A stretch of 64,000 nt of DNA from a virus (Duplodnaviria; Heunggongvirae; Uroviricota; Caudoviricetes). The stretch's first letter is position 1, and every line of letters starts with the position of its first letter. Of the stretch, positions 2,923 to 32,550 are shown one piece after another. The translations under genes were made by a program, and so were the position numbers. The notes beneath the pieces are model-generated. The model made no database searches, was not told where the DNA came from, and was given only the letters and a program-made list of their open reading frames with translations. The stretch is from positions 1 through 64,000 of IMG/VR virus record IMGVR_UViG_3300023174_004816; one strand, given 5' to 3'.

Positions 2923-4782
2923 ATGGCAATAGTACAGATATCACGTATCACCCAGCGTAAAGGACTCAGCGAAAACTTACCGCAGTTAGCGGGTGCAGAG
3001 TTTGGGTGGGTTATAGACGAACGCAGATTGTTCATTGGCAATGGCACCATACAAGAAGGTGCTCCTGCTATTGGCAATACAGAAATCCTCACAGAATATT
3101 CAGATATATTTGCCATTGCTGGTCTCTATACCTACAAAGGTGAAGCTGGTGGCTACACTGTACAAACAGGACCCACAGCTGGAGATCCTGTACAAAGAAC
3201 TCTGCAATCAGTGTTGGATGAAACAGCCAGCGTCAAAGACTTTGGCGCCACTGGTGACGGTGACACAGACGACACAGAAGCCATTAACCGTGCCCTGTAT
3301 CAAATGTTCTGCAGAGAAAATAATCCGCAAGTGCGTCGTAGTTTGTTTTTTCCAGCAGGCATATATCGTGTAACAGATAGTATCAAGATTCCGCCCTACT
3401 GCAAACTCTACGGAGAAGGTGGTGATAGTTCTGTTATCTTTTTAACTGCCGCAGATGATTCCACAGTGGCAACTTATGTGGCGCAGACTGCAGACAGTTT
3501 ACAACAGACTGGTGTGAACATTGGCAACAATGGTGCGGCTACACCACAGAACATTGAAATCTATAACATGGGTTTCCAGAGTAACGAAGAGATTGACTTG
3601 TTCTTGATTGAAGACGCAGAACAAATCAGTTTTCAAGACGTCAGCTTCAATGGCCCGTTTGATCAAAACGACATTGCCAATGCACAAGGTGTGAGCTCTT
3701 TTGACACAGGATCGTTAGTAGGTGGAACCAGTTATGTCAATGCAACCAATGTGGCCACAAGCAACTCAGGATCAGGATTTGGCCTAACAGTAAACATCAC
3801 GGCAGCCGGTGCAGTGACCCTGGTCACTGTAAACAATCCTGGGCAAGGCTATGCAGTGGGAGATGTCATCACTATCTCAGGAGGCAACGACAATGCCACT
3901 ATAGAAGTGTTGTCTACATTCAACAGAATAACCACCGCTGACATTGCCTCGGTACGTTTCGCCAGCACTGTAAGTACAATTACAAATACAGTGACATTTG
4001 ACACTTGTCATTTTACTGGATCAAGTTATGCATTTGATGCCGATGAGCAAATACAAGGTATCACTGTACAAAACTCACGATTTGATACACTATGGCAAGG
4101 TGCCTTGATTGGTGCAGGAACTCCAGTCAACGGTGGCCCTAGTGGATTCCGCTTGTTACACAACTTGTTCGATGCTATCTATCACGAAGGTATCATAATA
4201 GGAGCAGTTCAAAACAACATGTCTGGCTTCAACATCTTCTTGGATGTGGCCACAGATTTCCAAGGTGGAAATCAAACTCCATCTACTCCAATTATCAACA
4301 TCAACGGTGACAACAACGTATCGTTTGGCGACATGTTTGAAAGAGATGAAACGTTTAATCTCGTTGAACCTCGCATTGAAATCAACAATAAAAAAGTATT
4401 TGCTCTTGACAAAGGTGAACGTTATAAGTTTGGAACTTATGGACAGGATGTTGGCAAAGAGGTATACTTGGATCTAACCAACACTCCAATCACAGTCATA
4501 ACTTGGCTTCCAGAACAGGCCGAGGCTTTTACTATGCAATATAAGTTTAGAGACCCATTGAATTTAACTACCAGGTATGGAACCTTACAAGTTGTTGCCG
4601 CTGACGGAGATGATTCTTCAGGCACATTGACTTATACAGATGATTACAGTGAAAACAATCCTACATACCTCACACTTGATGTAGTTCAAGTAGGCGGTGA
4701 GGTAGAGGTACAATATACATTACCATCGGGCAGTGGCGCCAGTGGTGGCACATTAAAGTACTCAATCAGCTATCTAGGATAA
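2923..4782 (+). CDS. tailspike/tail fibre protein with a pectate-lyase-like beta-helix domain
   Basis: VKDFGATGDGDTDDTEAINRAL motif (Pectate_lyase_3-type, common in phage tailspikes); 619 aa, Gly/Thr/Asn-rich repeats. Confidence 0.7.
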   Translation: MAIVQISRITQRKGLSENLPQLAGAEFGWVIDERRLFIGNGTIQEGAPAIGNTEILTEYSDIFAIAGLYTYKGEAGGYTVQTGPTAGDPVQRTLQSVLDETASVKDFGATGDGDTDDTEAINRALYQMFCRENNPQVRRSLFFPAGIYRVTDSIKIPPYCKLYGEGGDSSVIFLTAADDSTVATYVAQTADSLQQTGVNIGNNGAATPQNIEIYNMGFQSNEEIDLFLIEDAEQISFQDVSFNGPFDQNDIANAQGVSSFDTGSLVGGTSYVNATNVATSNSGSGFGLTVNITAAGAVTLVTVNNPGQGYAVGDVITISGGNDNATIEVLSTFNRITTADIASVRFASTVSTITNTVTFDTCHFTGSSYAFDADEQIQGITVQNSRFDTLWQGALIGAGTPVNGGPSGFRLLHNLFDAIYHEGIIIGAVQNNMSGFNIFLDVATDFQGGNQTPSTPIININGDNNVSFGDMFERDETFNLVEPRIEINNKKVFALDKGERYKFGTYGQDVGKEVYLDLTNTPITVITWLPEQAEAFTMQYKFRDPLNLTTRYGTLQVVAADGDDSSGTLTYTDDYSENNPTYLTLDVVQVGGEVEVQYTLPSGSGASGGTLKYSISYLG

Positions 4783-4784
4783 CT

Positions 4785-5216
4785 GTGTGGCCAGACCGGT
4801 ATGAAGACCGGTTATCCCAGTGGCATCAATTGCGGCAGGATAACCAAACCAATAATTTAGAAACAGCATTGTTGACCATCAATGATTGGTGGCAACGTGT
4901 CCCTGTTGTCAATCACTATCTGCATTGGGATGATCTCGAAACTTGGCCAGATCCCTGGGATCTTTTAGCCGATAATCACTTCTGTAATCTTGCAAAAGCC
5001 CTGGGAATAGTGTATACTTTACACATGATTGGTCGAGATGACATAACCGCTGTGGCAATAGCCAACAATGGCGATTCTAACGACAATTTAGTCCTGGTCA
5101 ATGAGGGAAAATATATACTGAATTGGGCTCCTGGCGAATTGTTAAATATCACATCCAAACAAGTAACAATAAAAAGAAGCGTAGATTCACAAGCGGTAAC
5201 AAAGAAAATCAACTGA
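4785..5216 (+). CDS. hypothetical protein
   Basis: 143-aa ORF starting 3 nt after the tailspike stop. Confidence 0.4.
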   Translation: MWPDRYEDRLSQWHQLRQDNQTNNLETALLTINDWWQRVPVVNHYLHWDDLETWPDPWDLLADNHFCNLAKALGIVYTLHMIGRDDITAVAIANNGDSNDNLVLVNEGKYILNWAPGELLNITSKQVTIKRSVDSQAVTKKIN

Positions 5217-24770: not shown

Positions 24771-26015
24771 ATGAAAAAAGTATTAACTATATTCTCTTTG
24801 ATCACAATATTAAGTGGATGTGCCATCATCCAAAGCACCAGCTTGAACGAAACAGATCCCACAGTGTCCGCACAAAGAGAGAATATCAAAAAAGATTTTG
24901 ATACTCTTCCGCCACCAAGTTCGGGCAAACCAATCAGTGTGGCAGTTTACAGTTTTAAAGATTTAACCGGCCAACGTCGTCCACAAACCAATGTGGCAAG
25001 TTTATCAACAGCAGTCACACAAGGTGCTGAAGCATTTTTAATCAAGGCACTACAAGATGTTGGCAATGGTCGTTGGTTTGATGTAGTTGAGCGTGTGGGC
25101 ATAGATAACCTGACCAAAGAACGTCTGATCATTCGTCAGATGCGTGAAGCCTACGAGGGCGCCAACGCTAAACCACTCATGCCCATGCAGTTTGCTGGCA
25201 TGATCATTGAAGGTGGTATTGTTGGGTACGACTCATCGATCAACAGTGGTGGCGCTGGTATGCGAGTGTTCGGTATTGGTAAACAAACACAATGGACACA
25301 GGATGTGGTCACAGTAAGCCTACGTGCTGTGAGTGTAAACACAGGCAAAGTCTTGGTCACAGTTGCAGTACAAAAAACTATTTTAGGATCTGCTGATTCA
25401 GTGAGTGCATTGAAATTCTATGACATGGGCACCAAAGCCTTTGAAGCAGAAACAGGACTCACGATCAATGAGCCCGGAACTTATGCAGTGAAATCAGCCA
25501 CTGAAGCCGCTGTGGTAGAGTTGATCAAAGAAGGACAACGCAAAGGAGTATGGGATTTTAAACCGGAGACACCACCCCCAACACCACAAGTTCAGTCTGG
25601 ATCTCCGGCTCCAGTGATTGCCAGCGAGATTAAGACTGTTTCACCGCAAGTCAAGGAGAACAAAAATGAGTTGGTTCAACCACAAACCCCCAAAGCATCC
25701 GCCGCTGCCACCACAACAACACCCGCACCGGTTCAGCCCAATATCGGAAAAGATACGCGAGGGGACAAAACAGAAAGTAAACCCGTTGTCACAAAAACAG
25801 AAGAACCCAGACCGCTGTTCGGACAACGAAGATTAAAAGAAGCTGAGTTCATTTATAAAGAACCCAATGATCGTAGTCAAAAAACTTGGCAGTTCAAAAA
25901 AGGCACAGTGGTAGACATCAGACAACCAGGCAGCGATGGTTGGGTCAGAGTCACTGACAGCGAGCAACGAGGGGGCTGGATTCGTGTGGAACAACTAGAA
26001 GAACTTGGCCGTTAA
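24771..26015 (+). CDS. csgG: curli secretion channel CsgG-like lipoprotein with a C-terminal SH3-like extension
   Basis: Lipobox LSGC; SVAVYSFKDLTGQ, GGIVGYDSSINSGGAGMRVFGIG and TVSLRAVSVNTGKVL collinear with E. coli CsgG; extra Pro/Thr-rich linker plus an SH3b-like C-terminus. Confidence 0.8.
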   Translation: MKKVLTIFSLITILSGCAIIQSTSLNETDPTVSAQRENIKKDFDTLPPPSSGKPISVAVYSFKDLTGQRRPQTNVASLSTAVTQGAEAFLIKALQDVGNGRWFDVVERVGIDNLTKERLIIRQMREAYEGANAKPLMPMQFAGMIIEGGIVGYDSSINSGGAGMRVFGIGKQTQWTQDVVTVSLRAVSVNTGKVLVTVAVQKTILGSADSVSALKFYDMGTKAFEAETGLTINEPGTYAVKSATEAAVVELIKEGQRKGVWDFKPETPPPTPQVQSGSPAPVIASEIKTVSPQVKENKNELVQPQTPKASAAATTTTPAPVQPNIGKDTRGDKTESKPVVTKTEEPRPLFGQRRLKEAEFIYKEPNDRSQKTWQFKKGTVVDIRQPGSDGWVRVTDSEQRGGWIRVEQLEELGR

Positions 26016-26149
26016 AATGCTGTCGCTTAATAAAACAGCAATAACGATTAAATATTTAAGTAGCATCAGCCTCATGCAGTTTAAGGAGGTAAAATAATTA
26101 TAAGGTCAAAAAGACCAGGGAGCTGGGACAGGGAAATATAAACCCGTCC

Positions 26150-26971
26150 TTGATGGAAATGAAAAACAGAATGACAGGCGCCGGTGGGTTGTCGAGTAAA
26201 TTACTCACCCTAATGTTGGTGTTAGGCATTAGTTGTACTGCAAATGCTGTAGACAACAGCATATACATAGATCAAAGCGGAGACACCGCCACGATCAACA
26301 TTACCCAAGACGGTTCTACCAACCGTGTCAAGGGTATACTGCCTAGTGGAAACCCAGGATTGACCACAGACCCAGCAACAATCACAGGCGATGGCATTTT
26401 GGTCAACGTCCAACAGGTTGGCAATAACAACACATTAAATCTTGGAGTTAATACTACCACTGCTTCGGGAGGAAATCCTACAACAGTCAACTACTCAGTG
26501 TCAGGCAACAACAACCAGGGTATGATTAACTTAAACAATGATGGTCAAGGTACCAATCAAAGCACTACATTAGATATCACACAGACCGGTGGAACCAACG
26601 TTGCTGATGTGGGTATCTTGGGAGCCAACAACAGTCTGACAGTGGATCAGAGCGGCGGCGGCGCAACTATCTATGCTAGAATCAATGCCGATGACACCAT
26701 GTCTACAGTGACAACCAGTGGTGGCTCGGGCAACGAAGTCAGCTTAAATCTCACAGGCAACAAAGGACAAGCAGATGTAACCATTGTTGGTGGATCCAAC
26801 ATTGTAGGGATCACACAAAGCGGTGGTGGTACATTGGGTCATAAGTCCACTGTTAACCTTGACGGGTCCGGTAACAATGTAGCCATAACTCAGGGCGGTA
26901 CCATTGACACCAATGTCAATTTGAAAAGTGTAGGATCTGGTAATGCTTTTACTATCAACACTCATAACTAA
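26150..26971 (+). CDS. curlin-repeat (CsgA/CsgB-like) secreted protein
   Basis: Signal peptide; repeated Q-x-G-x-x-N curlin repeat units (IDQSGDTATINITQDGSTN, VDQSGGGATIY, ITQSGGGTLG). Confidence 0.55.
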   Translation: MMEMKNRMTGAGGLSSKLLTLMLVLGISCTANAVDNSIYIDQSGDTATINITQDGSTNRVKGILPSGNPGLTTDPATITGDGILVNVQQVGNNNTLNLGVNTTTASGGNPTTVNYSVSGNNNQGMINLNNDGQGTNQSTTLDITQTGGTNVADVGILGANNSLTVDQSGGGATIYARINADDTMSTVTTSGGSGNEVSLNLTGNKGQADVTIVGGSNIVGITQSGGGTLGHKSTVNLDGSGNNVAITQGGTIDTNVNLKSVGSGNAFTINTHN

Positions 26972-26980
26972 GAGGGAACA

Positions 26981-28108
26981 ATGAAACTATGCAAGCTACT
27001 ACAATGCGCACTCTTGCTGAGTATATCACTGAACTGCATCGCGGCGATAGGTACCATAACAGAACAACTCAATGCGCCGGGTTCGATACAACGATCCACG
27101 GCAACAGTGACGGGGACCAAGGGGACCAAGGTGGAGATGCAGGACTCAGTCAAGACCCAGCAGGGCAAGCTGGGGATAACCTTTGACGATCAAACTCGTG
27201 TACAGGTCAACGAGAACTCCAAGTTAGTCATTGACAGCTTTGTATATGATCCTAAAAAGGGTGCGGGTAAACTGGCAGTCAATGTGGCCTTGGGCACAGT
27301 GCGTTATGCTTCGGGACAGATTGCTAAAAATAGTCCACAGAATGTGGCAGTCAACACACCAACTGCCACTATATCAGTTCGTGGCACAGATTTTTCAGCC
27401 ACAGTGGATGAGTTGGGGCAAAGCACTATTATTTTGCTACCTAGTTGTCCTAATGATCGCAGTAATAGAACTGCACGAGATATTGAGCGTGATTGCAAAA
27501 CTGGCGAGATTGTGGTAGAAAGCGATGCAGGACAAGTTATTCTCAATCAACCTTTTCAAGCCACAAGAGTGGACAGTCGCGGTGCCGCCCCTAGTGCGCC
27601 AACCATACTAAAGCTCAGTGAAGATGCCATTGGCAATATGTTGATTATGTCGCCACCACGCGAACTCAGAGAAGATAACACTCGTAACCGTGCAGAACTT
27701 AGAGGAGCCTTGGACATAGACTTCCTCAAAGAACAAGGCCTGGTCAATGCTCTTGACGCACAAGAAAAAGAAATATTTCAAGACAAGTTGAGTCGTAACT
27801 TTTTAGATCAAGACTTCTTGGCCAACATCTTGGACATTGTGAACGCACAGTTGGCCGCACAGTTAGACTTGTTGAATAAAAACAACAACAGCAAACTATT
27901 ACCTGATTGGTTACCATTGACTGGTGTCACTGTGGATCTTCAAGAGCCCAAAGTAACCCTAGCCAGAGACGATGGTAGCAACATCATGAGTGTTACAGTT
28001 CCAACCTCACAAAATCCCACAGTGATTATGTCACAGGGGTGGGTCATGGACATTAAGAATCGAGTCAACAATGGAGGCAGCACAACTATTACGCTGATAC
28101 AAAAATGA
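26981..28108 (+). CDS. secreted FecR-domain-like protein
   Basis: Signal peptide; beta-rich region (VRYASGQIAKN...ISVRGTDFSATVDELG) resembling a FecR/DUF4880 fold; assignment tentative. Confidence 0.35.
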   Translation: MKLCKLLQCALLLSISLNCIAAIGTITEQLNAPGSIQRSTATVTGTKGTKVEMQDSVKTQQGKLGITFDDQTRVQVNENSKLVIDSFVYDPKKGAGKLAVNVALGTVRYASGQIAKNSPQNVAVNTPTATISVRGTDFSATVDELGQSTIILLPSCPNDRSNRTARDIERDCKTGEIVVESDAGQVILNQPFQATRVDSRGAAPSAPTILKLSEDAIGNMLIMSPPRELREDNTRNRAELRGALDIDFLKEQGLVNALDAQEKEIFQDKLSRNFLDQDFLANILDIVNAQLAAQLDLLNKNNNSKLLPDWLPLTGVTVDLQEPKVTLARDDGSNIMSVTVPTSQNPTVIMSQGWVMDIKNRVNNGGSTTITLIQK

Positions 28109-28851
28109 TAGAAAAAGATCATTACAAAGCCAGTCTTGAATACTGGCGACGTTGGGAAGCAGAAAAACAAGCATTGTCCAAGCGAAATCTAATAAACGGT
28201 TGTTTTATAGCTGTTGGATTATTTGCAATGCCTTTTGTCATACTATTTGCTTTGATTGCAATGACTGGCAAGGCTCACGCACAAAACCAAATAAATCAAG
28301 GTCTGAATCCTGGCGTGGCAATTCCTGCTGCCAGCACAGTCTATGTTGATCAAATAGGTAACTACAATACCATTAACATAGAACAAAAAGACACAGTGGG
28401 GCACTCAGCCACTGTTACCATGGGCAAACTCAGCGATGTTGATCATACCACAGTTTCTATACTACAACAAGGCACAGGAACAAAAACAGCATCAGTTGAA
28501 ATAAAAGCCGGCACATACAACAATGCTGTCATCAATCAAGATGGGGCAGGCAATCACTTGGCCAGCATACAGAATCTCAATGGCAGCAACAACGGCATAA
28601 CTGTCACGCAAAGCGGAGCAGGACAGCATGAGTTCAACGTGATTGGCGGAGCAGGGACCACAAACAGCAACAATTCTATCACTGCCACACAAAGTGGAGG
28701 AATAGGTGCAGAGAAATGGTTTAATGTTTGGCTCAACGGTGCCAACGGCGCCACTGTCAATGTACAACAAACAGACAACAATCCTGGGCAGGCATCATTT
28801 AACATACAATGTCAAACAGGTTGTGGAGCCTGGAGTTACATACGTCAATAA
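28105..28851 (+). CDS. second curlin-repeat (CsgA-like) protein
   Basis: Signal/TM segment then VDQIGNYNTINIEQ, INQDGAGNHLASIQ, VTQSGAGQHEF and ATQSGGIGAE repeats. Confidence 0.5.
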   Translation: MIEKDHYKASLEYWRRWEAEKQALSKRNLINGCFIAVGLFAMPFVILFALIAMTGKAHAQNQINQGLNPGVAIPAASTVYVDQIGNYNTINIEQKDTVGHSATVTMGKLSDVDHTTVSILQQGTGTKTASVEIKAGTYNNAVINQDGAGNHLASIQNLNGSNNGITVTQSGAGQHEFNVIGGAGTTNSNNSITATQSGGIGAEKWFNVWLNGANGATVNVQQTDNNPGQASFNIQCQTGCGAWSYIRQ

Positions 28852-28928: not shown

Positions 28929-28957
28929 TAAGCCCCTTTCGGGGCTTTTTTATTTCT
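28929..28957. terminator. bidirectional rho-independent terminator
   Basis: AGCCCCTTTCGGGGCT stem-loop with TTTTTT on the + side and an A-run on the - side, between convergent genes. Confidence 0.7.
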
Positions 28958-29639
28958 TAAGCAAAAATTTCTTTTTTAAATGTAACCGAACTTGGTTGTA
29001 TTGTAACGCAGTGATTGCCACAGCGGCGGCCCAGGGCACTACCTTCACAGCCCATTCTGCAGTTTGTGCCCACCAACTGGCCAACAACGGTTCTTTGGTG
29101 GCCATTTGCACAGCAACCGCAAACAACACAAACGATCCCACAAACACACTGTCTGGAAAACGTTTGAGAATCTTACTGACCAATCCAGCTCCAAACAAAA
29201 TGATTGGCACTGAGATTAGCAAGCCAGCAATGACAAGAACAAAGTTTCCATTGGCTGCCGCGGCAATTCCTAGAGCATTGTCTATGCCCATGACAGCGTC
29301 GGCAACTACAATGGTGCCGATGGCACCCCAGAATGTGTCTTTAGCTTCAACGTTGTGTTCTTCGTTGTTGAAAGCCAATTTCCATCCTATCCACAACAAC
29401 GCCACAGCACCAATTAAACGCAGTCCAGGTATCATTAAAAGATATGTCAGTGCGGCCACACTAACAAAACGTATGGCCACAGCGCCAAAGGTTCCCCAGA
29501 AGATTGCTCGCTTTCGTAAATGTTCCGGAAGTTTGTTGGCTGCCATGCCAATGACTAATGCGTTGTCACCGGCCAACACAATGTCTATTAGTATGATAGC
29601 GAGAAATGCCCACAGGGCTTGTAATGTAAATAACTCCAT
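28950..29639 (-). CDS. TerC-family integral membrane protein (Alx/YkoY-like)
   Basis: ILIDIVLAGDNALVIGMAA and VADAVMGIDNALGIAAAA duplicated TerC motifs; AAGGAG RBS. Confidence 0.85.
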   Translation of the reverse strand: MELFTLQALWAFLAIILIDIVLAGDNALVIGMAANKLPEHLRKRAIFWGTFGAVAIRFVSVAALTYLLMIPGLRLIGAVALLWIGWKLAFNNEEHNVEAKDTFWGAIGTIVVADAVMGIDNALGIAAAANGNFVLVIAGLLISVPIILFGAGLVSKILKRFPDSVFVGSFVLFAVAVQMATKEPLLASWWAQTAEWAVKVVPWAAAVAITALQYNQVRLHLKKKFLLKK

Positions 29640-29644
29640 TTTAA

Positions 29645-29818
29645 TACTCCTTAAAAGAGTATATCATGGATGTCATTCCAATGAATGAGGATTATACGAT
29701 CCATAATATACTATGATATTATGGTCTTGTCCGGAACCTATTTCCTTATGCACCGAGCCGTTAAGCCGAATTGACGACGCATAAAACTCTTATATTAAGA
29801 GTGGACTACTCCCCATGC
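29645..29818 (-). ncRNA. candidate yybP-ykoY (Mn2+) riboswitch in the TerC leader
   Basis: Minus-strand leader begins UGGGGAGUAG (29806-29815), then the hairpin CUCUUAAUAUAAGAG, then GGACAAGACC; the expression platform AUACUCUUuuaAAGGAGUAU sequesters the SD; ykoY itself is TerC-family. Confidence 0.45.
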
Positions 29819-31899
29819 AAGTATTTAGTAAATACATGATGCTAAAGAAAACTACTATTAAAAAATTACTGGTTAGTCCATGGACAGCATTGTTGACATT
29901 GGCACTTATTTTAAGTATAAGAATCGCAGACCCTACATTTGTAGAAAGCATAAGATTACGATATTTTGACACACTGATCACAGCGCAGGCACCCACTGTC
30001 AACAATATCTATACTGTGAACATTGATGAAGCCGCCCTAGACAAGTATGGACAGTGGCCTTTGCCCAGAGTCAACTACGCAGAAATTGTACAGGATCTAT
30101 ATACCCGTGGCGCTGGACTGGTTGTACTCAACGTGCTCATGGCTGAGCGCGATCGCACTGGAGGTGATGGTGCGCTGGCTGCCATGCTACGACATTATCC
30201 TGTGGTCTTGGGCTCAGTGCCCAGCGCCAAAAACAAAAACACTCCTCGTGTGCCAGGATCAGCTGTGTTGAATCCAGAGTGGATGGATCAGATAGTCACA
30301 TACCCAGGATTGATCGCCAACGTTTCTCAGTTGGAACGCAGTGCCGCTGGTGTGGGCATTGTCAATACCTTGCCAGAAGTAGATGGTGTAAATCGTCGTG
30401 TGCCCTTGATAGTCACAGTTGACAGCAAACTATATCCAGGGTTGGCTCTGGAAACTCTGCGTGTGGCCACAGGCAATGACACTTTCCAGGTCAAACTGTT
30501 CGAAGGCGGCGTTGAAAAGATGCGCTTGCCTGGAGATGTTGGTATACTCAACACAGACAATCTTGGACGCATCTGGATTGACTGGAGTCAGCAATCAAAA
30601 TCAGTGTCACTGACCAGCTTGCCCAAAGACTTTGGTGGTGCTATCGTTATAGTTGGTGCTACTGCCGCAGGCATTGCCAACCCTGTGCCCACCAGCCGTG
30701 GTGCTGTGTTTCCACATGAAGTACAGTCCGCTGTGATAGGTACCCTGGCAAACGGCGTGAATATTCAACGGCCAGACTGGGCGGATGGTGCTGAAATCAT
30801 ATTCATAGCAGTGTTGGGTGTGATCATTATTGGATTATCGAGGTGGACTTATGCAGGTATTCTTATATCTATTGTGGGGATCATTGCCCCTATTGTTGCC
30901 AGTCGTTTGGGCTTCAATGAGTGGCGAATCTTGGCAGACGCAACGGCAAGCACGGCTGGTCTTGTTCTCGTGGCTCTGCATACTTACGGCGTTAAGTTTG
31001 TAAGTGAGTTCTTACAGAAACAAGCCATAAAGAAACAGTTTGCTGGCTACTGTTCAAAAGAAGTGGTAGAGATGCTACAGAAAGATCCAGACTTGATCAG
31101 GCGAGGTGTGCGCAAAGACGTATCAGTTATGTTCAGTGATCTACGTGGCTTCACACCCATTGGTGAACACTACGGCGATGACGTAGGCGGACTAGGCCGG
31201 TACATGAACGGTTACATGGATGCTATCAGCCAACCCATGATGGACAACAAAGGCATGATCATCAAGTATGTGGGCGATGCCTCCATGCACATACATGGTG
31301 CTCCCATTGAAGATCCTAATCACGCTAGAACTATCGTTAGGGTAGGATTGGAGATGTTGGACAAGGTAGACGAGTATACCAAGCTGATGGAAGCACAAGG
31401 CCTGCCACCTGCGGCCATGGGTTGGGGTTGTAATTCAGGTATTGGCTTTATTGGCGAGATGGGTTCAACAGAACGACACAGCTATGACATCTTGGGTGAC
31501 ATGGTGTCAACAGCCGCAAGACTAGAAGCACGTTGTAAAGCCTATGGTGTGTTATGTATCATTGGCGCTGAAACATACAACAGAACCAAAGACGATTTCT
31601 TCTATTTGTTGCTGGACAACTTACAGCCTAAGGGAAAAACAGTAGCAGATTTGATCTACACAGCACTACGTACCAAGGGCGCAGACTACTCAAAAGATCG
31701 AGCACAGCATGAAGAGATGCATGCCCTGTACCGTCAGAAAAAGTTTGACGAGGCCGCCGCAATGTGTAAAAAACTAGCAGGTAACTTTGGCGGGCAGATG
31801 GACAAGTATTACAAGATCTGGATTGAGCGTTGCGAGTTCATGAAGCAACAAGATTTAGGTGATAACTGGAACGGCGAATTTATTGCTCACGAGAAATAA
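29815..31899 (+). CDS. CHASE2-sensor membrane-bound class III adenylate/guanylate cyclase
   Basis: N-terminal TM, ~300-aa periplasmic CHASE2-like region (LDKYGQWPLPR), 2-3 TM helices, then cyclase motifs VSVMFSDLRGFTPIGE and KYVGDASMHIHGAP. Confidence 0.8.
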   Translation: MQVFSKYMMLKKTTIKKLLVSPWTALLTLALILSIRIADPTFVESIRLRYFDTLITAQAPTVNNIYTVNIDEAALDKYGQWPLPRVNYAEIVQDLYTRGAGLVVLNVLMAERDRTGGDGALAAMLRHYPVVLGSVPSAKNKNTPRVPGSAVLNPEWMDQIVTYPGLIANVSQLERSAAGVGIVNTLPEVDGVNRRVPLIVTVDSKLYPGLALETLRVATGNDTFQVKLFEGGVEKMRLPGDVGILNTDNLGRIWIDWSQQSKSVSLTSLPKDFGGAIVIVGATAAGIANPVPTSRGAVFPHEVQSAVIGTLANGVNIQRPDWADGAEIIFIAVLGVIIIGLSRWTYAGILISIVGIIAPIVASRLGFNEWRILADATASTAGLVLVALHTYGVKFVSEFLQKQAIKKQFAGYCSKEVVEMLQKDPDLIRRGVRKDVSVMFSDLRGFTPIGEHYGDDVGGLGRYMNGYMDAISQPMMDNKGMIIKYVGDASMHIHGAPIEDPNHARTIVRVGLEMLDKVDEYTKLMEAQGLPPAAMGWGCNSGIGFIGEMGSTERHSYDILGDMVSTAARLEARCKAYGVLCIIGAETYNRTKDDFFYLLLDNLQPKGKTVADLIYTALRTKGADYSKDRAQHEEMHALYRQKKFDEAAAMCKKLAGNFGGQMDKYYKIWIERCEFMKQQDLGDNWNGEFIAHEK

Positions 31900-32550
31900 A
31901 TGACAAACCCTACTATAGCATTGTTTATACATCAACCAAAATGTTCTATACAAAGTGGCAACGGTATAATACAAGCGTTGGGAGATCATTATAAGTTTAA
32001 AATTTTTACAAAACACAGTTTAGAAAAAGATTTTTTTGACAATATTGACATGGTGGCCTTCCCAGGAGGCACTGGAGATTCAGAAAGTTTTGATTATCTC
32101 ATGTCTGACCATCTTGGTCGTATCAAAGATTTTGTTGACAAGGGCGGCAGATATCTTGGTATTTGCATGGGAGCATACTGGGCAGATCATCACTATTTTG
32201 ATCTATTAGATGAAGTTGAAGCACAACAGTACATCAGAAGACCAGGAACAGACACTCGTAGACCACACCCCAAAGCACTTGCTGTGAACTGGCAAGGACA
32301 AATTGAAAAGATGTATTTTTATGATGGTTGTGCCTTGGTTGGCAATGCTGAAAAGTTTAAAACGATTTCTAGTTATGCCAACGGTGATGCCATGGCCATA
32401 ATACAAAACAGGGTAGGACTAATAGGGTGTCATCCAGAAAGTGAAAAAAACTGGTACACAGAATATCATCAATGGATGCGTCCGCATTGGCATCACAGAC
32501 GCCATCATCAACTACTGCTGGATTTTGTCAATCAGTTGATGGAACGTTAG
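31900..32550 (+). CDS. class I glutamine-amidotransferase-like (DJ-1/BPL_N-like) protein
   Basis: GGRYLGICMGAYWA nucleophile-elbow-like Cys; ATG overlaps the cyclase stop (TAAATG). Confidence 0.4.
   Translation: MTNPTIALFIHQPKCSIQSGNGIIQALGDHYKFKIFTKHSLEKDFFDNIDMVAFPGGTGDSESFDYLMSDHLGRIKDFVDKGGRYLGICMGAYWADHHYFDLLDEVEAQQYIRRPGTDTRRPHPKALAVNWQGQIEKMYFYDGCALVGNAEKFKTISSYANGDAMAIIQNRVGLIGCHPESEKNWYTEYHQWMRPHWHHRRHHQLLLDFVNQLMER

Follow-up and report, generated by a model that had tools for sequence, protein, structure and literature searches.

The 64,000-nucleotide (nt) stretch of viral DNA studied here (positions 1 to 64,000 of the Caudoviricetes record IMGVR_UViG_3300023174_004816; hereafter the window) raises the question of whether a phage can place a membrane transporter gene under the control of a metal-sensing RNA. 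An initial annotation had proposed that the leader of a TerC-family gene in this window holds a Mn2+ riboswitch of the yybP-ykoY class, a proposal that sequence, structure, covariation and gene association all support. We consider a genuine yybP-ykoY-class riboswitch aptamer at 29715-29822, in the leader of a phage-encoded YjbE-type TerC gene, to be the best full explanation of the locus, and we hold this reading with good, though not complete, confidence. All coordinates refer to the whole window, and the TerC leader lies on its minus strand.

A model trained on bacterial leaders recognizes the phage TerC leader

As annotated, the regulated gene belongs to the TerC family (Pfam match 4e-42). 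It falls into the NCBIfam family TIGR03717 ("R_switched_YjbE"; 197.4 bits against a cut-off of 134.8), a TerC subfamily that owes its name to its position behind the yybP-ykoY riboswitch; a PDB sequence search returned no solved relative of the protein. Scanning 185,579 species-representative genomes with the TerC protein gave 80 loci, 51 of which carry GGGGAGUA(G/A) upstream and most of the others GGGAGUA, within ~270 nt of TerC. An alignment of 54 de-duplicated bacterial TerC leaders (A1), which holds zero phage sequences, is invariant at GGGAGUA, C-UCA (CGUCA), C, GG (CGG) and AGAC. Folding A1 with RNAalifold returned P1.1, the L1 internal loop, P1.2, P3.1, L3, P3.2 and P4, with compensatory changes at 22 of 25 pairs. 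The covariance model made from A1 (R1), with no phage sequence in its training, gave a single full-length match in the window, at 29715-29822 on the minus strand (55.0 bits, E = 4.6e-12 in a search space of 128 kb), and no second match up to E = 10. When applied to Escherichia coli K-12, R1 found the alx leader (44.8 bits) and the mntP leader (37.4 bits), each directly 5' of its own gene; the window aptamer outscores both of these validated riboswitches. In addition, the fold of the TerC leader beat 200 of 200 shuffles (z = -3.6).

The yybP-ykoY class is built from two coaxial legs, a metal site formed by L1 and L3, the switch helix P1.1 and a four-way or three-way junction (PMC12153347). On the minus strand of the window, the TerC leader reads ...TATTTACTAAATACTTGC-AUGGGGAGUAGUCC-ACUCUUAAUAUAAGAGU-UU-UAUGCGUCGUCAAUUCGGCUUAACGGCUCGGUGCAUAA-GGAAAUAGGUUCC-GGACAAGACCAU..., and both loops of the metal site are present, L1 as GGGGAGUAG and AAGA and L3 as GUCGUCAAUUCGG. 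The 5' strand of L1 is an internal loop flanked by the 4-bp helices P1.1 and P1.2, and the closing motif (A/G)AGACC on its 3' strand is found as GGAC-AAGA-CCAU (29732-29721). In the L3 context, GUCGUCAAUUCGG...CUCGG (29778-29753), the invariant C-UCA, C and GG are all kept. P1.2 shows compensatory changes in the bacterial and the phage sets alike. At the level of base pairing, the four-way junction that folding was proposed to reveal was recovered, and standard or wobble pairs build each of the six helices; in the R1 alignment, non-standard pairing is confined to C29817/A29720, the outermost P1.1 pair of the model, and to the first pair of P4. The individual motifs of the initial annotation were likewise where it had placed them. 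UGGGGAGUAG occupies 29815-29806 and contains the one copy of GGGGAGTA that the two strands of the 64 kb have; the perfect hairpin CUCUUAAUAUAAGAG spans 29801-29787, and the GGACA element sits at 29732-29728. The 3' end of the aptamer lies 81 nt from the TerC start codon.

One search came out against the proposal. Rfam 15 gave no match to RF00080 ("Manganese") above the gathering score in the window, and in E-value mode the model reached 12.6-16.7 bits against a threshold of 45. The lower score belongs to 29688-29815 (minus strand) in a 321-nt search, the higher (E = 0.005) to the L1/P2/P3 region of the window in a 166-nt search. The RF00080 alignment is perfect in L1, continues through P2 and P3 and then loses the 3' half; the conserved nucleotides of L1 and L3, whose alignability had been in question, align cleanly under both RF00080 and the bacteria-only model. 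The installed RF00080 has 177 positions, and its printed consensus structure is without the P1 pairing. We calibrated this model on known members of the class. Of the two validated E. coli riboswitches, mntP stayed at 41.6 bits and so fell short of the gathering score of 45, and alx was unreported at E <= 0.01. Canonical bacterial TerC leaders from Paenibacillus, Desulfosporosinus and Polynucleobacter obtained 34.8, 32.1, 31.7 and 26.1 bits. At the gathering threshold, none of 20 bacterial TerC loci matched, including a Paenibacillus leader with a classic terminator, and neither did any of 16 phage relatives. The installed RF00080 model and its threshold thus give false negatives even for founding members of the class, and the shortfall cannot refute membership because validated mntP and alx and textbook leaders fail too. 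Annotation pipelines that depend on RF00080 would under-annotate this class and overlook such elements. Taken together, structure-aware homology, covariation and gene association show that the element, which sits in a phage context, belongs to the yybP-ykoY class; Mn2+ is its probable ligand.

The aptamer is conserved and covaries in a clade of phages

Searching IMG/VR with the TerC protein returned 80 viral loci (62-90% identity) on contigs of up to 357 kb, and R1 found an aptamer 5' of TerC at 61 of 81 viral loci, with scores of 32-62 bits. Covariation was computed over the 44 distinct phage aptamer sequences. Paired cells make up 86.6% of this set, compared with 35-37% when partners were shifted by one column, and double changes were seen in 110 cells compared with 38.5 ± 4.6 in shuffles, none of 500 shuffles reaching 110. 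P3.1 is 98.6% paired, with compensatory changes at 5 of 8 pairs, and P3.2 is 93.8% paired. The inner G-C pairs of P1.1 are retained in 44/44 and 42/44 sequences, the remaining two being G-U. P2, which lies outside the model consensus, forms in all 44 aptamers from 35 different sequences. P4 is present in seven of the 44, with compensatory changes, and its columns are empty in the other 37. Furthermore, the exact TerC protein occurs in the same gene context on seven metagenome contigs, whose leaders vary by G29778A, which turns a G-U pair of P3.1 into A-U, and by a 4-nt change in an unpaired spacer. Such pair-preserving micro-variation, together with the covariation, shows that purifying selection on the structure is ongoing.

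Two types of leader can be told apart (L numbers denote individual loci). The long type with the four-way junction is found in the window and in L033-38, L054, L056, L060, L189, L196 and L200. Most relatives have the short type, which carries GGGGAGUAA, is P4-less and has a conserved purine-rich GACAAAG linker in the place of P4. Copies of the short type (L001-L032 and most others, e.g. L001:3889-3988) have a three-way junction and a platform of only ~10 nt. An exact search with GGGGAGTAG misses the element in most relatives, which carry GGGGAGUAA. The remark in the initial annotation that such a riboswitch is unusual in a phage is fair with respect to the literature; within this phage clade the element is common and not a one-off.

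Scanning IMG/VR with the L1...L3 pattern gave 111 loci, 63 of them in the YjbE-TerC clade. At ~13 further loci the same TAAATA box (see below) and aptamer (R1 40-64 bits) stand before other genes, either a TerC of Alx type (313-317 aa; match to E. coli Alx at E = 5e-75 with 40% identity) or open reading frames (ORFs) of 42 aa; a single group of phages therefore employs the aptamer for more than one target. Among these loci are L251:2599-3657, L300, L318, L295, L312, L317, L223 and L232, and L247:4278-4517, L271:1207-1448 and L243:7712-7954. The 42-aa ORFs are hydrophobic and conserved (MGTFASLAS...), and the contigs reach 356 kb.

The aptamer is missing from ~15 more distant viral TerC loci. 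In L040, L043 and L044 (~3890-4000), only the 3' end of the leader is kept (...CUAUAGACAAAACUGUGAUACCAUAAC...) and its 5' two-thirds are replaced by the end of an upstream ORF, which looks like a natural loss of the riboswitch with retention of the strand that pairs with the start codon. The cultured TerC-carrying phages Otagovirus REC1, psageK4e and Rhizobium phage RHph_I1_18 have no aptamer (best R1 score 6.5 bits, E~1), and they have only ~65-80 nt 5' of TerC. No similar phage DNA was found in GenBank, either by megablast with 20 kb of the window or by blastn with the leader, so that there is no cultured relative to turn to. A 2.7-kb contig binned as Chitinophagaceae (L081, CAZUUI010000291.1) carries a TerC 79% identical to that of the window behind a phage-type short leader with TAAATA box; this piece probably derives from a phage and was mis-binned into a bacterial metagenome-assembled genome.

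A TAAATA box directly precedes the aptamer

The gene divergent from TerC had been called a cyclase, and its product is a CHASE2 and nucleotide cyclase protein. At this divergent pair lies a palindrome, TATTTA-C-TAAATA (29822-29834), whose plus-strand TAAATA (29829-29834) faces the cyclase gene. Every one of the 43 distinct phage leaders (43/43) has a TAAATA that stops 4-8 nt short of the first G in GGGGAGUA, where the background expectation is ~0.009 per 40 nt, and L001 carries the exact TATAAATA. There are 32 TAAATA sites in the window (e.g. 37, 2900, 14377, 18486, 23273 on the minus strand, 29829 and 35143 on the minus strand), many of them 1-25 nt 5' of ORF starts. Divergent pairs have a palindrome TATTTA-N(1-5)-TAAATA with an ATG 1-5 nt after the box, an arrangement that recurs in relatives with a divergent upstream gene; an ATG so close to TAAATA suggests leaderless or near-leaderless mRNAs. 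A T4-type late promoter, TATAAAT, is cited for related aquatic myophages (PMC9004378). No sigma-70 promoter was found 5' of the aptamer, and sites in the leader were no more frequent than in shuffles. The TAAATA box may act as a T4-late-like promoter, and the TerC transcript would then probably start at ~29816-29819, at the 5' edge of P1.1.

The called ATG of the cyclase (29815, also in the JGI annotation) overlaps the first nucleotides of the aptamer, and two further ATGs, at 29836 and 29839, follow the plus-strand TAAATA. We take 29836 or 29839 to be more probable than 29815 as the true start of the cyclase; with either of these starts the aptamer does not overlap the neighbouring coding sequence.

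The leader is predicted to act as a translational ON switch

The initial annotation had described a terminal hairpin that sequesters the ribosome-binding site (RBS). The complementarity behind this claim is present, between AUACUCUU (29662-29655) and AAGGAGUAU (29652-29644), which holds the Shine-Dalgarno (SD) sequence. The claim was incomplete, in that folding predicts the start codon to be buried too, with a relay of alternative helices that would connect it to P1.1. The terminator scan found no intrinsic terminator in the TerC leader; a mechanism in which helix H1 (segments 2:3 of the relay) serves as terminator was rejected, no U tract following this helix.

The relay comprises five segments (Table 1). 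By computation, the P1.1 3' strand CCAU (29724-29721) pairs either with AUGG or within CCAUAAUAU/AUAUUAUGG. H1 has a duplex energy of -8.9 kcal/mol and appears in the minimum free energy (MFE) structures of the unconstrained and the P1.1-open leader, and the alternative helix H2 (segments 3:4) is a 13-bp duplex of -15.0 kcal/mol. Segments 2:3 and 4:5 are paired and the SD hairpin is formed in both the free and the P1.1-open ensembles. In constrained folding of the window leader, the probability of being unpaired rose for the AUG from 0.01 with P1.1 open to 0.19-0.25 with the aptamer or P1.1 enforced, and for the SD from 0.25 to 0.38-0.40, in an energy model that excludes tertiary and metal contributions and co-transcriptional kinetics. 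The AUG became more accessible in 7/7 long-type leaders (0.01-0.03 open to 0.07-0.86 closed), and the closed-state MFE contains the segment 3:4 helix in five of the seven. Closing P1.1 costs 0.6-5.7 kcal/mol over the long-type leaders (2.7 in the window), a price that ligand-driven docking could plausibly afford. The relay segments are kept in the seven leaders, with a spacer of anything between 25 and 52 nt separating segments 3 and 4, and in L196 the two strands of H2 have changed in step (AUGG to AUGA in segment 3, UCCAU to UUCAU in segment 4). A signature scan for further long-type leaders gave no new variant in IMG/VR and three in metagenomes; most other matches to the long-type pattern were set aside as chance occurrences in GC-rich coding DNA.

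The same response was computed across the clade, since 41 of the 44 distinct phage leaders open at the AUG on P1.1 closure (median 0.002 to 0.79). In the short type, two pairings compete directly for CCAUAA, one within P1.1 and one with the start-codon stretch UUAUGG. From this modelling, the long type looks like the short design plus one inserted AUGG/CCAU module, with the ON logic preserved. The motif UCCUCAU (Table 1) may, by analogy with the invading strand of alx, form an extra OFF-state helix with AUGGGGA that dismantles L1; AAUCCUCAU is kept in L056 and L060, and L189 has UCUCCAU instead.

A P1.1 switch helix and translational ON control, in which Mn2+ leads to the translationally active fold, are established for mntP and alx (PMC12153347). 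Our folding results suggest a translational ON switch of this kind that works through the five-segment relay. Transcription would start at ~29816-29819 from the T4-late-like TAAATA box. Without Mn2+, segments 2:3 and 4:5 would pair and the AUACUCUU:AAGGAGUAU hairpin would bury the SD and the AUG. With Mn2+, docking of L1 and L3 would lock P1.1 (segments 1:2), and segment 3, freed by this lock, would capture segment 4 and so open the start codon and the SD. In this way the phage would adjust TerC translation to the metal status of the infected cell.

Features of the locus and origin of the element

The features of the TerC leader and its neighbourhood are collected in Table 1. The hairpin behind the TerC stop gave a terminator-scan match with T-run on the plus strand, and on the minus strand it has a short U tract only.

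Table 1. Positions of the aptamer, the predicted relay and the neighbouring genes in the window.
Feature	Position	Strand	Remarks
TAAATA box, T4-late-promoter-like	29822-29827	-	7 nt 5' of the first G of GGGGAGUAG
Entire yybP-ykoY-class aptamer, with four-way junction	29715-29822	-	Full-length R1 match; weak RF00080 match 29688-29815
P1.1 5' strand, AUGG	29813-29816	-	Pairs A-U, U-A, G-C, G-C with CCAU 29721-29724
UGGGGAGUAG, with L1 5' strand GGAGUA (29807-29812) and flanking pairs	29806-29815	-	Equals Rfam consensus UGGGGAGUAG
P1.2 5' strand, GUCC	29803-29806	-	4 Watson-Crick pairs with GGAC 29729-29732
P2 hairpin, ACUCUUA-AUA-UAAGAGU	29786-29802	-	7 bp; includes the perfect hairpin of the initial annotation
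P3.1, UUAUGCGUCG (29775-29784) with CGGUGCAUAA (29746-29755)	29746-29784 (left leg)	-	10 pairs including wobbles
L3 loop, UCAAUUC	29768-29774	-	Left leg
P3.2 hairpin, GGCU-UAAC-GGCU	29756-29767	-	4 pairs including wobbles
P4 hairpin, GGAA-AUAGG-UUCC	29733-29745	-	4 bp; compensatory changes in bacteria
3' closing strand, GGAC-AAGA-CCAU	29721-29732	-	P1.2 3' strand, L1 3' strand AAGA (29728-25) and P1.1 3' strand; R1-aligned
Relay segment 1, AUGG	29813-29816	-	P1.1 5' strand
Relay segment 2, CCAUAAUAU	29716-29724	-	CCAU is the P1.1 3' strand; whole segment alternatively pairs with segment 3 (H1)
Relay segment 3, GUAUAUUAUGGAU	29699-29711	-	Predicted to pair with segment 2 (OFF) or segment 4 (ON, H2)
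UCCUCAU	29685-29691	-	Can pair with AUGGGGA of P1.1/L1 and does so (29816-29810) in the unconstrained MFE structure
Relay segment 4, AUCCAUGAUAUAC	29659-29671	-	Predicted to pair with the start-codon region (OFF) or segment 3 (ON); overlaps AUACUCUU 29655-29662
RBS AAGGAG and AUG	29647-29652 and 29637-29639	-	Both within the sequestering hairpin; SD-to-ATG spacing 7 nt
Relay segment 5, AUGGA	29635-29639	-	Start codon
TerC ORF	28950-29639	-	229-aa membrane protein, YjbE subfamily; Pfam PF03741, 4.4e-42
Hairpin GCCCC-GAAA-GGGGC	28930-28947		GC-rich, terminator-like; right after the TerC stop, between convergent genes
CHASE2-sensor nucleotide cyclase	29815 onward	+	Membrane protein, 694 aa as called; divergent from TerC
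BPL_N / class-I glutamine-amidotransferase-like protein	31900-32550		Directly after the cyclase
CsgG with C-terminal SH3 domain	24771-26015		Curli-like module (24771-28851) adjoining TerC
Curlin-repeat protein	26150-26971		Curli-like module
FecR-domain protein	26981-28108		Curli-like module
Second Gly/Asn/Gln-rich repeat protein	28105-28851		Curli-like module; no Pfam match

PHROG and Pfam searches of the window matched large and small subunits of ribonucleotide reductase (RNR), an ATP-dependent DNA ligase, an exonuclease, virion structural proteins and a head maturation protease. Further matches were to several phage-only families of unknown function, a UvdE endonuclease, methyltransferases and a radical-SAM protein. 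Phages of the pelagimyophage/Melnitz type are marked by curli pore genes, a two-piece transfer-messenger RNA (tmRNA) and T4-like late promoters (PMC9004378). In those phages the pore genes are the known oddity, whereas the window has curlin-like subunits besides the pore gene. One relative with the long leader type, L033, holds at 4452-4840 (minus strand) a permuted two-piece tmRNA of betaproteobacterial type (RF01850, 118.7 bits; RF04321, 111.7 bits), which is consistent with a host among the Betaproteobacteria and with Melnitz-like phages. Other relatives encode tRNAs (L009:7994-8066 and L022:7056-7128, both on the minus strand). The signalling cyclase that the phage carries beside a metal-regulated transporter may merit a look of its own.

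The closest cellular TerC proteins are those of Polynucleobacter (62-68% identity), followed by Rhodanobacteraceae, Paenibacillus, Limnohabitans and Negativicutes, and the phage leaders L049, L065 and L066 nearly equal the Polynucleobacter form. Gene and riboswitch therefore probably came together from a freshwater host, a betaproteobacterium similar to Polynucleobacter, and were put under a phage promoter.

Alternative explanations

Several observations weigh against a functional, Mn2+-responsive riboswitch of a phage at 29715-29822. The RF00080 gathering score of 45 is missed, and P1.1 has only 4 bp, with outer pairs that are poorly conserved (helix 1 is 68.6% paired in the family). The near-invariant A of UCAAnACG, next to L3, is U in the window. 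The aptamer-enforced MFE structure of the window retains the sequestering hairpin, so that the modelled response is a shift of the ensemble to 0.19-0.25 and not a full switch. Finally, no capsid or terminase gene was identified within the 64-kb window. The same U beside L3 occurs in bona fide bacterial leaders from Negativicutes (L113 and L150); a second near-invariant position deviates by a C to U change, which gives P3.2 a G-U closing pair. A chance resemblance without any structured RNA would agree with the empty Rfam search at gathering, but the R1 match (E~5e-12) and the strong covariation already refute it, the fold stands at z = -3.6, and we give it practically no credence. The aptamer might also be a decaying relic that is carried along with TerC and no longer regulates it, as its loss from some relatives (3' end only in L040, L043 and L044, nothing at the ~15 more distant loci) could indicate. 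Every helix is intact in the window copy, however, its R1 score exceeds that of the validated E. coli members, and its family shows strong covariation and pair-preserving micro-variation, which makes a relic very improbable. It is also conceivable that the aptamer is real and the window a piece of bacterial chromosome, such as a Polynucleobacter-like genomic island, with the riboswitch as an ordinary host element. The cargo is of cellular type (CsgG, curlin repeats, FecR, CHASE2-cyclase, TerC), megablast and blastn gave no match to GenBank phages, and the closest cellular TerC and leader come from Polynucleobacter. On the other side stand the virion structural proteins, head maturation protease, RNR, DNA ligase and phage-only families, the 80 IMG/VR relatives on contigs of up to 357 kb, and the TAAATA box, which replaces the bacterial upstream sequence in 43/43 leaders. 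The best match in the species genomes is 68% identical, apart from the 2.7-kb contig with a phage-type leader, the window contains no tRNA or rRNA, and curli genes and two-piece tmRNA are known in related T4-like aquatic phages (PMC9004378), the tmRNA being present in L033. We keep a small probability for a cellular region because capsid and terminase were not found in the 64 kb.

Granted a genuine phage aptamer, its mechanism or its signal could still differ from our proposal. The control might be Rho-dependent or otherwise transcriptional, the element might be an OFF switch, or P1.1 and the start codon might compete without the 3:4 helix. Such alternatives draw on the sequestering hairpin that persists when the aptamer is enforced and on the thin covariation of the relay, which rests on seven long-type sequences whose segments are mostly invariant; in addition, E. 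coli mntP is reported to be subject to Rho as well (PMC11647493). We regard them as unlikely, since the leader has no intrinsic terminator, the AUG becomes more accessible on P1.1 closure in 7/7 long-type and 41/44 of all leaders, L196 has its matched H2 change and the spacer is variable, and every member of the class that has been characterised turns exporter expression on (PMC12153347). With the fold of the class in place, the signal could be another divalent cation, or pH together with Mn2+: the TerC-linked alx couples Mn2+ sensing to alkaline pH (PMC12153347; PMC13594968), and the U at the near-invariant position beside L3 could point the same way. We hold this to be improbable, given an L1 and L3 core identical to the consensus and a regulated protein that belongs to the Mn-linked TerC subfamily. 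A Mn2+-responsive translational ON switch thus remains our preferred reading of the leader.

Wider reading

Jointly, these observations allow a wider reading that we put forward tentatively, at somewhat less than an even chance. A clade of freshwater T4-like or jumbo phages, likely on Polynucleobacter-type Betaproteobacteria, would have domesticated a host Mn2+ riboswitch by fusing it to a late-type promoter, and would thereby make the translation of YjbE-type TerC, Alx-type TerC and the 42-aa ORFs conditional on the Mn2+ of the cell. Two phage innovations would be part of this picture, namely the P4-less aptamer with its GACAAAG linker and ultra-compact platforms in which CCAUAA masks the start codon, either directly or via a duplicated AUGG/CCAU module. 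If true, no metal-sensing riboswitch family would have been described in viruses before. Such a riboswitch, kept in dozens of large freshwater phage genomes and placed on a phage promoter, would mean that phages read the metal status of the infected cell through an RNA and adjust an auxiliary Mn transporter to it; infection would then be tied to the Mn homeostasis of abundant freshwater bacteria. The natural minimal translational platforms (~10-75 nt) and the P4-less aptamer could also be useful for work on riboswitch mechanism and for engineering.

Comparison with known systems

Riboswitches are called rare in phages, and the published examples that we found sense glutamine, the only kind reported there, in Methylophilales phage Melnitz, Pelagibacter phage Mosig and cyanophages (PMC9004378). 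Full-text searches turned up no published phage-borne Mn riboswitch, an absence that is not proof of novelty. Melnitz-type phages are T4-like and aquatic, offer a precedent for riboswitch carriage and also have curli pore genes, a two-piece tmRNA and TATAAAT late promoters; their riboswitches differ in belonging to another class, with glutamine as ligand and another target, and the same paper describes neither a metal-sensing riboswitch nor TerC (PMC9004378).

Among the Firmicutes, L. lactis yoaB and B. subtilis yybP and ykoY/meeY have the same aptamer class. The crystallised L. lactis aptamer has GUCGUCAAUUCG as its L3 region, as in the window. The Firmicutes members use an intrinsic terminator/antiterminator, as does the Paenibacillus leader L101, whereas the window leader has no terminator; ykoY/MeeY is also a TerC protein (PMC13598126).

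The E. coli mntP riboswitch shares with the window the L1 strand GGGGAGUAG, the AGACC closing strand, the four-way junction with P2 and P4, and the translational control, predicted in the case of the window, via alternative pairing of the P1.1 3' strand. It differs in regulating MntP and not TerC, in its L3 (GUGUCAACAUAC) and in its long platform. It is also a chromosomal element of the host with sigma-70 promoter and protein regulators, in contrast to the TAAATA box and compact AUGG/CCAU relay of the phage copy. The E. coli alx (PRE) riboswitch resembles the window element in that a TerC-family Mn exporter gene stands behind a Mn aptamer under translational control; in its OFF state a P1.1/L1 strand pairs downstream, which is comparable to AUGGGGA and UCCUCAU in the window. 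Unlike the phage element, alx senses pH too and has a three-way junction without P2; the P4-less short type of the phages would be a different reduction of the fold. The 321-aa Alx protein belongs to another TerC subfamily and is, going by its name, presumably of the TIGR03718 type.

The closest cellular relatives of both the phage protein and its leader are the YjbE-type TerC leaders of Polynucleobacter (Burkholderiaceae). They have in common with the window the four-way junction, GGGGAGUAG, GUCGUCAAUACGG, a GGGGAAUGGGUCC-type P4 and CAAGACCA; they differ in having no TAAATA box and a short, different platform, to which the window adds the extra segment 3:4 module. The element of the window is thus a new member of a well-known riboswitch class, standing before the classic gene family of that class, and it stands out by its phage setting, by its apparent fusion to a putative late-type phage promoter and by the predicted relay with its compact platform.

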